64,000 bases of DNA from a virus. The DNA is taken from IMG/VR virus record IMGVR_UViG_3300045988_163776, positions 1 to 64,000 of that record; one strand, 5' to 3'. The position numbers and the translations under genes are program-made. A model generated the notes under the pieces. That model ran no database searches. It was not told the DNA's origin and saw nothing but the letters and a program-made list of their open reading frames with translations. Each line of letters opens with the position of its first letter. Within the stretch, counting starts at the first letter, position 1. Shown one piece after another: positions 50,296-53,200 of this stretch.

Positions 50296-53200
50296 ATGGG
50301 ATTTTTTGATGGACACAATCACACAGAATATTCTAATCTTCGTTTACTTGATTGTATAGTAAAACCAAAATATCTTATAGATAAAGCTATAGAAAAAGGT
50401 TTGGATGGTATTGCGATAACAGACCATGAAGCTTTATGTAGCCATATGATAGTGAATCAATATGCAAAAAAGATTCGTGAAACCAATCCAAATTTTACAA
50501 TTGCTTTAGGTAATGAAATTTATTTAACAGATACAAGAGAAAAAGGGCAAAAATATTATCACTTTATTTTAATTGCAAAAGATAAAATTGGTTATCGAGC
50601 ATTAAAAGAATTAAGCTCTATTGCTTGGTATAATATGTATGAAGATAGAAGAATGGAAAGAGTTCCTCTTTTAAAGAGTGAACTAGCAGAAGTCCTGGAA
50701 AGATATAAAGGTCATGTTATAGGAACTACTGCTTGTTTAGGAGGGGAACTCTCCTCTTGCGCTTTGAATATGTCTTTATGTGAAGAAGTAAAAGATGTGC
50801 AGACCGCAAATAGTTATAAACAACAAATTATTCGTTTCTTACAATATTGTACTAATGTTTTTGGTAAAGATGATTTTTATATAGAATGCGCTCCAGCTAA
50901 TAATGAAGACCAAATAAGAGTTAATAAAAAATTATTAGAAATAGCAAAGACATTCGATATAAAAATGACTACAGCGACTGATACACATTACATAGATAAA
51001 GAAGATAGATTTATTCATAAAGCTTATTTAAACTCAAAGGGTGGAGAAAGAGAAGTTGATAGTTTTTATGAATTTTCTCGATTGATGGATGAACAAGAAG
51101 TAAGAGAATTATTATTACTAAGTTTTGAAGAAAATGAAATTAATATAATTTTAAACAATACTTTAGAGATAAAAAACAAAATAGAATTTTATAGTTTAGA
51201 AAAACATCAAAGTATTCCAGAAGTGCCTGTGACTGATTATTCTAAAAATGCTTGGTGGGGAGTTAATAATGATTATGCGGATGAGATGAATAATTATCCT
51301 ATTTTAAAATCTTTATTTACTTCAGATAATATTCAAGAGCGCTACTGGATAAACGAATGTTGGAAATCTTTAGAGAACAAAAAAGGATTATGGATTGATA
51401 ATCTAGATTATGTTGCTCGATTAGAAGAAGAAGCAAGGGTAAAAAGAATTATAGGAGAAAAATTGCAAACTTGTATGTTTGCTTACCCAAATACTTTAAA
51501 GCACTATATTGACCTATTTTGGGACTGCGGAAGTACAGTTGGTGCTGGAAGAGGTTCAGCTTGTGCAGCGCTTAATCATTATCTTCTTGGCATTACACAA
51601 CTTGATCCTATAGAGTGGAATTTACCTTTCTGGAGATGAATTAGACGTCCCCCTTTATCGTGAGATAAAGTTAAAAATTTCGTGAACCCTATTACTCAGG
51701 GGTGTGAAAAGAACGATAGTTATGGTAGGAAATGACCATTTAATCTTTTTGCTAACCGGGGAGCCTCAGCAAGTAAAGTTGGAGGTAATCCAGTGCCAAG
51801 CCTTAGGAATAAGGAAGGTTTAACGACTATCCTATATGGAGTAGAGTAGAAGATGAGTTGCTACTCGAAGTGCGAAAATCTTTTGCTATTTTTGGACCAA
51901 AACGGCAAAAGTATCCATAATAAAATTAATATATAATAGAATAACAAAGGAGTTGTATTATATGTTAATTTATAAAATAACCAATTAGATAAATCAAAAA
52001 TGCTATATTGGTCAAACCATTAAGCCCGCGAAAATTAGATGGAAAGAACATCAATAGCATGCTTTTGGCTCACATAAAAATGACCAAAATAAAGCGTTGT
52101 ATCGAGCTATAAGAAAATATGGACTTGAAAATTTTACTTTTGAAGTTATTCAAGATGAAATAGAAACATATGAAGAATTAGATAAAGCTGAAATATATTG
52201 GATACATCATTTTAACAGTTTTGTTAATGGTTATAATTCTACTTTCGGTGGTTAGAAATATCACGAAATTCTTCCTATTTCAGAAATCATCTAGGATTAT
52301 AAAATAACTAAAAGCGCAAGAAAGACTGCTTTAAAATTTAATCTTGATCACAGCACAGTAGATGATATTCTTAATGCTGCTGGGGTAGAAAGATTTACTT
52401 TTAGATAGGCCGCTGGACAAATGATAAAAATATCGAAAGATGATTTTGAAAAAATTTTTGATTCAGTAAGAGATTGTGCTGAATGGTTTGTAGAAAATAA
52501 AATTCCTAGAACAACAAAAGTAGAAAGCGTTCGTACCGGTTTAAAGACAGCAAGAGCCGGCAAAGGATATTATTATGGATACTTAATAGAAAATATAGCA
52601 AAAGAATAAGATATAGTCTGCGCCATTAGAAATAATGGATAACGTGATCTTAATGACGAGAGAACTGAACTTGGAGACGTGGACATTGATCTTGCTCCAT
52701 CTAGACTTCAGAAAATATTTAGTGCAATCCGTGAAGAAAGAGGAGAATTAGGTTTAGTCCAAGTTTGTACTTTTGGAACAGAAGGGACAAAGAGTACAAT
52801 CCTTACTGCTTGTAGAGGCTATAGGTCAGAGGAATACCCAAATGGAATTGATAATGATGAAGCATTATATATATCTTCTTTAGTACCAGTAGAAAGAGGA
52901 TTTTTATGGAGCTTAAAAGATTTAACTGAGGGTAACGAAGAAAAAGGACGAAAACCTTCTAAAATATTCATTAATACAGTACAACAATATCCTGGCCTTT
53001 TAAAAATTATGAAAGGTATCGAATCTTTAGTCTGTCGCAGAGGAAGTCATGCTTCTGGAGTTATCTTTTTTGATGAAAATATTTATGATGATGCAGCAAT
53101 TATGAGAACTCCAAGTGGAGCCTTAGTTACACAATGGGACCTTCATATGCAAGAGGCTGCTGGTTCGGTAAAATATGACTTTTTATTAACATCTGTCCAA

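Follow-up and report, generated by a model that had tools for sequence, protein, structure and literature searches.

A probable mobile group I intron encoding a GIY-YIG endonuclease in the DnaE-type polymerase gene of an uncultured phage

It is textbook knowledge that phage genes for polymerases, ribonucleotide reductases and terminases may harbour group I introns with homing endonuclease genes (PMC3984707). The introns in the family A DNA polymerase genes of SPO1, Bastille, Twort and Pf-WMP3, which infect Bacillus, Staphylococcus and cyanobacteria, are self-splicing and of IA type, and are accompanied by homing endonucleases (PMC3984707; PMC3428280). We describe here an insertion that splits a gene for a DnaE-type (DNA polymerase III (Pol III) alpha/YorL-like) polymerase in an uncultured phage. 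It occupies positions 51638-52646 of a 64,000-nucleotide (nt) stretch of IMG/VR record IMGVR_UViG_3300045988_163776, the whole of which (30% G+C) is referred to below as the window. We are highly confident that the insertion is a mobile group I (IA-like) self-splicing intron carrying a GIY-YIG gene. As with the family A introns, the homing endonuclease would target conserved polymerase-coding sequence; PolA is, however, unrelated to the DnaE/PolC-type enzymes, and most of the family A introns carry HNH nicking endonucleases. No description of a phage dnaE group I intron was found in the literature searched, and what we report is a known type of element in a new host gene and genome.

Compared with the td intron of phage T4 and its endonuclease I-TevI (subgroup IA2), the element differs in its host gene (thymidylate synthase in T4), in the extra helices that it contains between P3 and J3/4, in the recoded TAG codons of its endonuclease gene and in the placement of that open reading frame (ORF), which lies in the P8 loop here but in P6 in td. 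The two systems are alike in that a phage group I intron resides in a DNA-metabolism gene, that peripheral helices P7.1/P7.2 are present, that an internal GIY-YIG endonuclease has a homologous catalytic domain (PDB 1MK0/1LN0, E about 2e-6) and that the ORF is looped out of the core with its 3' end overlapping core sequence; a hairpin over the endonuclease start in the window copy may be a further likeness. At the nucleotide level, T4 was not among the best 20 of 28 matches. Core similarity of 78-86% over about 60 nt was seen with Staphylococcus, Geobacillus, crAss-like and N4-like phage sequences among the matches listed.

The Pol III alpha introns of Enterococcus phages EF1 and EF5 (MF001358, MF001361) interrupt the same host protein family (39% identity), and the GenBank records annotate an 'HNH homing endonuclease # Phage intron' inside the gene. 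By eye, the first EF1 insertion has the same scaffold as the window intron: a GUGAAC...GGGUGU hairpin after P3, UAACGG, GUGUAACGACUA, a P7.2-like helix, GAAGUGC, AAGAUAUAGUC and a P9 with a GNRA loop, while P3 itself appears to be rebuilt from other bases (GAAUGU/GCAUUC) at the equivalent place. Unlike the window insertion, that of EF1 sits nine codons further downstream (query residues 456/458, directly before DVDID), encodes an HNH and not a GIY-YIG endonuclease in a host that uses the standard code, and is joined by a second insertion at residue 838/840. The cyanobacterial DnaE split intein also interrupts a Pol III alpha gene but is removed as protein. The window insert, whose first codon is an in-frame stop and which contains an RNA core, is therefore no intein.

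The limits of the insertion are set by a close relative with an uninterrupted dnaE, contig L001 (ENA ERZ28521482 NODE_1848; 94-97.5% nucleotide identity to the window). In blastn alignments, L001 391-3239 matches window 48789-51637 and L001 3240-7634 matches window 52647-57042. Because L001 is colinear on either side and breaks at 51637/52647, the 1009 nt at 51638-52646, which have no counterpart in L001, amount to an insertion, with L001 as the natural empty allele. The empty site is flanked by 40 nt upstream and 19 nt downstream that are identical to the window, and the position of the indel cannot slide, since the intron begins with G where exon 2 begins with A and ends with G where exon 1 ends with T. 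The exon and intron coordinates of an original prediction, which had been made from the letters of the window, thereby prove exact to the nucleotide. No local rise in substitutions (a co-conversion tract) was apparent around the insertion site when the window was compared with L001.

All dnaE, endonuclease and intron features given below lie on the forward (+) strand. Exon 1 (50296-51637) covers the PHP domain and the first part of the polymerase core and ends with the U of a split codon, U|AU; its ORF (50296-51639) closes with a TGA in frame (51637-39) that spans the splice site. Exon 2 (52647-55174) begins with the AU of this UAU codon and encodes LNDERTELGDVDIDL in a frame that runs from 52649 to 55174, with TAG codons at 53810-12 and 54077-79 as its only two breaks. 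When 50296-51637 and 52647-55174 are joined in silico, the product is a 1289-amino-acid (aa) protein that is 99% identical, at equal length, to the L001 gene product (P0001, 1289 aa). The predicted spliced RNA junction is CUGGAGAU|AUCUUAAUGA, i.e. CTTTCTGGAGAT|ATCTTAATGACG, and P0001 reads ...PFWRYLNDERTELGDVDIDL / ...DPIEWNLPFWRYLNDERTELGDVDIDLAPS / ...PFWRYLNDERTELGDVDIDLAPS across this point, equal to the predicted spliced junction; the junction peptide and the split UAU codon had thus been called correctly. Pfam models PF02811 (PHP), PF07733 (DNA_pol3_alpha), PF17657 (finger) and PF14579 (HHH_6) each match the spliced protein above their cutoffs, which agrees with the DnaE-type host gene originally proposed, and the DNA_pol3_alpha match, which covers residues 371-627, passes through junction residue 448 without a break. 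The intron is inserted between the first and second bases of codon 448, and the DVDID block lies nine codons further downstream. Both exons are intact relative to the uninterrupted allele (97% identical), with zero frameshifts. In a protein database search, all of the best 120 matches were uninterrupted homologues (1209-1326 aa, 63-99% identity), and the intron is therefore sporadic; among cultured phages, the polymerases of Enterococcus phages and YorL of SPbeta are its nearest relatives, with identities of about 39%. A megablast search of the locus against GenBank phages gave no match, and a scan for promoters and terminators gave nothing above shuffled expectation.

A search with a 17-nt core word retrieved 19 IMG/VR contigs. 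In 17 of these the insertion follows the codon aligned to residue 447 and is flanked by like exon sequence, in DnaE homologues that are 51-64% identical to that of the window over the aligned segments. The available sequence of L002 begins 34 nt before the intron, so that exon 2 alone aligns, and the remaining contig, L015, is arranged differently. The introns measure 317 nt (L018, which has no ORF), 345, 749, about 1010-1040 and 1148 nt; ORF-less insertions (317 and 345 nt) are found at the same site in L018, L006 and L020.

The RNA structure of this family is conserved and shows strong covariation. Fourteen intron copies were aligned with the P8 loop replaced by GAAA (alignment A1), and RNAalifold recovered P1, P2, P3, P4-P6, P7.1, P7.2, P8, P9.0 and P9, to which the P7 pseudoknot was then added. 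Across the 14 copies 99.7% of cells are paired, whereas sliding the partners leaves 39-46%; compensatory changes occur in 30 of 89 pairs, as against 2-5 after sliding, and none of 500 shuffles reached 30. A U•G pair stands at the 5' splice site in 14/14 copies and the terminal G is invariant (column 336 of A1); in the window this is G52646, as fixed by the exact indel against L001. P1 (51632-51652) joins exon GGAGAU (51632-37) to guide GUCCCC (51647-52) through the wobble U51637•G51647. In the 13 relatives its pairs are perfect (GGAGAU/GUCUCC in ten, GGCGCU/GGUGCC in L008 and L009, GGCGUU/GACGCC in L007), in three of them by way of compensatory exon/guide changes, and two P1 pairs covary with synonymous arginine codons of the exon (AGA/CGC/CGU). 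The same P1, with its single mismatch (A×C), had been part of the original prediction, which had suspected on that account that the 5' junction might be off by a few nt. Since GGAGAU/GUCCCC is the only mismatched P1 in the family, that worry was unfounded: the junction is exact, and the mismatch is peculiar to the window copy.

Downstream of P1, the P2 hairpin (51653-51670) has 7 bp and a GUGA loop, with 4/7 pairs compensatory. P3 pairs UUUCGU (51678-51683) with GCGAAA (51872-51877), a 3' strand placed by family alignment and covariation; it is paired in 14/14 copies and includes one covarying C-G/U-A pair. A first drawing of P3, which is also Rfam's choice, set UUUUUGC (51747-53) against GCGAAAA (51873-79). 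It was rejected on three grounds: it has A×A and C×A mismatches in most relatives; its 51747-53 strand already belongs to a local helix in which four pairs are compensatory; and the alternative at 51678-83/51872-77 covaries and is rebuilt with other bases in phage EF1. The P4-P5-P6 domain (51755-51819) consists of P4 (51755-61/51789-94), P5 (51763-67/51782-86) and P6 (51795-97/51817-19), the last with P6a and a GGAA loop. The core sequence quoted in the original prediction is present here, at 51752-51797, where there is a partial Rfam group I match. The 5' strand of P7, GACUA (51825-51829), forms the pseudoknot with UAGUC (52614-52618), invariant and paired in 14/14 copies. Between P7 and the 3' strand of P3, at 51830-51866, lie the subgroup IA peripheral helices P7.1 (51830-32/51838-40) and P7.2 (51844-49/51861-66, 3/6 pairs compensatory), and it is because of their position that we assign the intron a probable place in subgroup IA, as IA-like. 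The 5' strand of P8 (51879-51890) pairs with 52594-52605 and has three compensatory pairs, all contributed by the window copy; its loop holds the endonuclease gene in the window and is only 4 nt long in the ORF-less L018. The 3' ribozyme segment (52594-52646) comprises the P8 3' strand (52594-605), J8/7, the P7 3' strand (52614-18), P9.0 (52620-22/52643-45, 2/3 pairs compensatory), P9 (52623-28/52633-38, GAAA loop, 2/6 pairs compensatory, with the Rfam partial match ending at 52639) and the terminal G at 52646.

About 65 nt between the P3 5' strand and J3/4 (51687-51752) form extra stem-loops that we provisionally call P3.1/P3.2. These are a first hairpin (A; 51687-90/51698-701, 2/4 pairs compensatory), an enclosing helix (B; 51704-12/51744-52, 4/9 pairs compensatory) and the hairpin enclosed by it (C; 51722-26/51735-39, 5/5 pairs compensatory). 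The td-type layout is not known to include such helices between P3 and J3/4. We regard this domain as a peripheral variant and not as a new class, because the EF1 intron, by eye, shares the layout and because 'P3.1' is already among the optional group I helices (PMC3873408). The extra helices go beyond the original prediction, as does the finding, described below, that the ORF can be read only if TAG encodes glutamine.

The GIY-YIG homing endonuclease gene occupies 51962-52609 (215 codons plus TAA), preceded by a Shine-Dalgarno sequence, GGAG, at 51949-52. The standard code breaks this ORF into pieces and it is open only with TAG as sense: there are in-frame TAG codons at 51986, 52055, 52253, 52292 and 52406, and neither TAA nor TGA occurs in the frame before 52609. 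With TAG as Q the protein reads MLIYKITNQINQKCYIGQT... It matches PF01541 with 38.4 bits against a cutoff of 22.6 and aligns to residues 5-91 of the I-TevI catalytic domain (PDB 1MK0, E = 1.7e-6), which supports the GIY-YIG assignment made originally. Across 12 endonuclease orthologues (212-214 aa) the motifs IYKITN, YIGQT, RWKEH, KAEIYWI and GYN are kept. The gene is interlocked with the ribozyme at its 3' end, where its last four sense codons are the P8 3' strand and its stop codon lies in J8/7. At the 5' end, a hairpin at 51923-51971 with a 16-bp stem holds the AUG (probability of the AUG being paired 1.00; reached by 0/100 shuffles) and may, according to this folding model, occlude initiation of translation. 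Occlusion of the start codon by a hairpin has been described for I-TevI in T4. Across the family, support for a start-codon/Shine-Dalgarno hairpin is mixed: MAFFT/RNAalifold gave no consensus for it, and pairing of the start codon is clearly above shuffles only in the window and marginally so in L012, L002 and L008.

Taken together, these observations suggest how the element would act in catalysis, in homing and in the timing of endonuclease expression. The transcript would fold into the P1-P9 core, exogenous guanosine would attack after U51637, held by the P1 U•G wobble, and the freed exon 1 would attack after G52646, joining ...UGG AGA U to AU CUU AAU... and restoring a frame of 1289 codons. 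On unspliced RNA, translation would end at the UGA spanning the 5' splice site. The predicted I-TevI-type endonuclease would cut intron-less alleles such as that of L001 near CTGGAGAT|ATCTTAATG, and repair would copy the intron into the cut allele. Indirect signs of such mobility are the presence/absence polymorphism between 97%-identical genomes and the sporadic distribution of the intron.

Several observations weigh against a functional group I intron at this site. Splicing is predicted from DNA sequence. A scan of the window at Rfam gathering thresholds, which is 50 bits for RF00028, found one tRNA and no intron, and the intron is therefore established by comparative analysis. At relaxed thresholds there are two partial RF00028 matches, both below the gathering score and split by the 0.7-kb ORF: one at 51755-51829 (P4-P6 plus the P7 5' strand; 21.5 bits, E = 0.0079) and one at 52458-52639 (18 bits), in which the confident part is J8/7, P7' and P9, AAGAUAUAGUC...CCAUUAGAAAUAAUGG, and J8/7-P7' (AAGAUAUAGUC) aligns to the Rfam consensus with high posterior probability. 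Even the ORF-less homologue L018:4061-4328, at 47.4 bits (E = 3.8e-11), stays under 50 bits. Window P1 contains the sole unpaired P1 cell among the 14 copies (A51634×C51650) and the P7.1 loop is UAUAU instead of GAAA; an A×C in a 6-bp P1 together with this altered loop could make splicing less efficient. Being invariant, P7 and P7.1 give no covariation signal. P10 can be drawn by eye (UCU/AGA in the window and L007, AUUU/AAAU in others) but is weak, because its register, shifted by one column, is not kept across the family. Finally, no suppressor tRNA with a CUA anticodon is found in the 64-kb window, where the sole tRNA is a tRNA-Leu(UAA) at 105-181. The ORF in the P8 loop is one cause of the sub-threshold Rfam score. 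The extra P3-to-P4 helices may be partly behind it too, with no core element missing: in the Rfam alignment of L018, 46 nt (hairpin C and most of helix B) become an unaligned insertion before the model's P3 strand, while hairpin A is set on a 3-bp stem of the model, which also imposes a mismatched P3. The group I assignment of the original prediction is upheld by the covarying comparative structure, by partial RF00028 matches in both halves and by the ORF-less relative.

The peculiarities of the window copy might alternatively mean that it is a decaying, splicing-defective relic, which would leave dnaE broken or make a helper polymerase necessary. Decay could account for the unpaired P1 cell that no other family member has, for a P7.1 loop and P8 sequence unlike those of all relatives and for the low Rfam scores. 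However, all other helices are fully paired in the window, with the P8 differences compensatory; the endonuclease ORF is intact; and the exons, at 97% identity to the uninterrupted allele, have no frameshifts. A single internal P1 mismatch is, moreover, commonly tolerated, and we consider a relic improbable. It is very improbable that the insert is a free-standing GIY-YIG gene that fractured dnaE into two polypeptides which then assemble, even though exon 1 terminates at TGA 51637-39, a GTG at 52679 has GGAG upstream of it and the window contains two free-standing GIY-YIG genes elsewhere. The flanks of the ORF form a covarying group I core for which a free-standing endonuclease gene has no need, the guide sequence covaries with the exon, ORF-less insertions share the site in L018, L006 and L020, and a start at GTG 52679 would lose ten conserved residues. 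The split would also fall just before the catalytic Asp pair of Pol III alpha. As to an assembly chimera that has placed an unrelated mobile element in dnaE, the assembly quality of the window is not known, but the same arrangement at the same nucleotide recurs in 17 independent contigs from different samples and with diverged sequences, which leaves an assembly artefact with next to no likelihood. A mobile group I intron remains by far the best account of the insertion.

Other insertions were seen in the same contigs. In L005 (whose intron measures 1148 nt) and in L016, additional sequence follows directly on the 5' strand of P6, and a second element may have entered the P6 loop there. Further DnaE insertions lie at L007 6186-7379, L017 9903-10908, L021 (phage EF1) 3860-4839 and L020 9144-10401, 10679-11067 and 11330-11659, near query residues 620, 714, 802 and 838; these other positions suggest that some related dnaE genes have several introns. 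An unrelated group I intron at L018 10676-10957 passes the Rfam threshold with 66.5 bits, so introns that the model detects and introns that it misses coexist in these phages.

The window phage is predicted to read TAG as glutamine. With TAG as sense (code 15), ORFs cover 0.86 of the window instead of 0.61, whereas with TGA as sense they cover 0.63; homologues have Q at both TAG positions of DnaE, except for K at the second in P0003; and three of the five TAG codons of the window endonuclease align to Q in orthologues. The 12 endonuclease orthologues, with nine TAG columns between them, vary in their use of reassigned stops. Those of the window and L007 have five TAG each, mostly in Q or E columns, with three TAG columns lacking any Q, and those of L003, L004, L010 and L013 have one each (one at Q, the rest at E or I). 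L008, L009 and L012 have two TGA each and L011 has one, all in invariant W columns, and L002 and L019 have no reassigned stops. The host DnaE exons of L008 and L009 similarly contain TGA aligned to W, and those of L007 contain two TAG codons, aligned to Q and R. Given TAG-, TGA- and apparently standard-code copies, a single intron/endonuclease lineage appears to occur in phages with three codes.

TAG is far denser in the intron endonuclease than in its host gene (22.9 against 1.6 per 1000 codons; Fisher p = 9.4e-4), with 5.7 per 1000 over the whole window, and the two free-standing GIY-YIG genes of the window are TAG-rich like the intron endonuclease. Since dnaE itself needs two TAG read-throughs, the code switch would already be operating when the polymerase is made; given its five in-frame TAG codons, the endonuclease would be translatable only once TAG decoding by the phage is active. 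Borges et al. described a TGA-rich endonuclease in a self-splicing intron of a replication-stage gene in 'Agate' phages and proposed that its synthesis is delayed (10.1101/2021.08.26.457843). The two cases are alike in an intron endonuclease gene rich in a reassigned stop codon but differ in that codon, TGA (Trp) in the Agate phages and TAG (Gln) in the window, and the dnaE intron family combines TAG, TGA and apparently standard-code copies in one lineage. It is possible, and we suggest it only tentatively, that one lineage fixed at a single DnaE codon has spread over three codes (standard, TAG as Gln and TGA as Trp), that in each recoded host its endonuclease gene has gathered the reassigned stop codon well beyond the density seen in the polymerase gene around it, that these stops act as a timer with the window hairpin as a second check, and that the family is marked by a covarying two-hairpin domain between P3 and J3/4 that Rfam does not accommodate. 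The ribozyme would then splice whenever dnaE is transcribed, the endonuclease would be made only after the decoding switch, and the start-codon hairpin of the window copy would add its further check.

TAG usage shifts sharply along the window. Genes at 486-32324, among them gyrA, an ATP-dependent ligase and an AAA_33 kinase-like gene, make the first 32 kb almost TAG-free, whereas most genes after about 32.3 kb (32297-64000) contain TAG; the pattern suggests that a block compatible with the standard code gives way there to a recoded one. Of the two free-standing GIY-YIG genes, the one at 48124-48792 (PF01541, E = 1.7e-8) has five TAG in 222 codons, and L001 has about 160 bp in place of the roughly 670 bp that it occupies; the other, a GIY-YIG/NUMOD-like endonuclease gene at 61305-62153, has seven in-frame TAG (24.8 per 1000). 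A second insertion (57550-58510), common to the window and L001, splits nrdD (anaerobic ribonucleotide reductase). It carries an HNH_3/NUMOD1 ORF at 57751-58344 without TAG and, by eye, group I hallmarks (ACGACUA at 58345-51 and GAUAAUAUAGUC at 58457-68), with no Rfam match at E <= 0.1. At L001 7635-8494 an insertion of about 860 bp with a GIY-YIG gene lies in nrdD and is missing from the window (around 57040). As L001 has this nrdD insertion but lacks the dnaE intron, intron presence and absence are reciprocal between 97%-identical genomes. Elsewhere in the window, an 825-aa protein (5533-8010) has matches to PF11978, the shoulder domain of the Major Vault Protein (E = 1e-23), and to a Vault_3 repeat, and near this vault-like gene are genes for an SPFH/flotillin protein (17637-19115) and for SLH-domain proteins (2085-4895 and 19288-21111). 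Such vault-like, SPFH/flotillin and SLH genes are unusual phage cargo.

For annotation, these results mean that the two dnaE fragments are one intact polymerase gene and that the broken-looking GIY-YIG ORFs are one intact endonuclease gene. Neither is recovered by gene callers that use the standard code or by Rfam at default thresholds. Two further features are modestly interesting, namely the concentration of recoded stops in the endonuclease across three codes and the P3.1/P3.2-like domain that Rfam does not accommodate. The enrichment of reassigned stops in homing endonuclease genes would provide a TAG-code example of recoding used to time the expression of selfish or late genes; because this idea has already been published for a TGA-code phage, we see it as an extension and not a discovery. 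The intron family can also serve as a natural marker, in that individual columns of the endonuclease alignment have TGA in place of Trp and TAG mostly in place of Gln in different phages, and the P1 guide follows synonymous changes in the exon.

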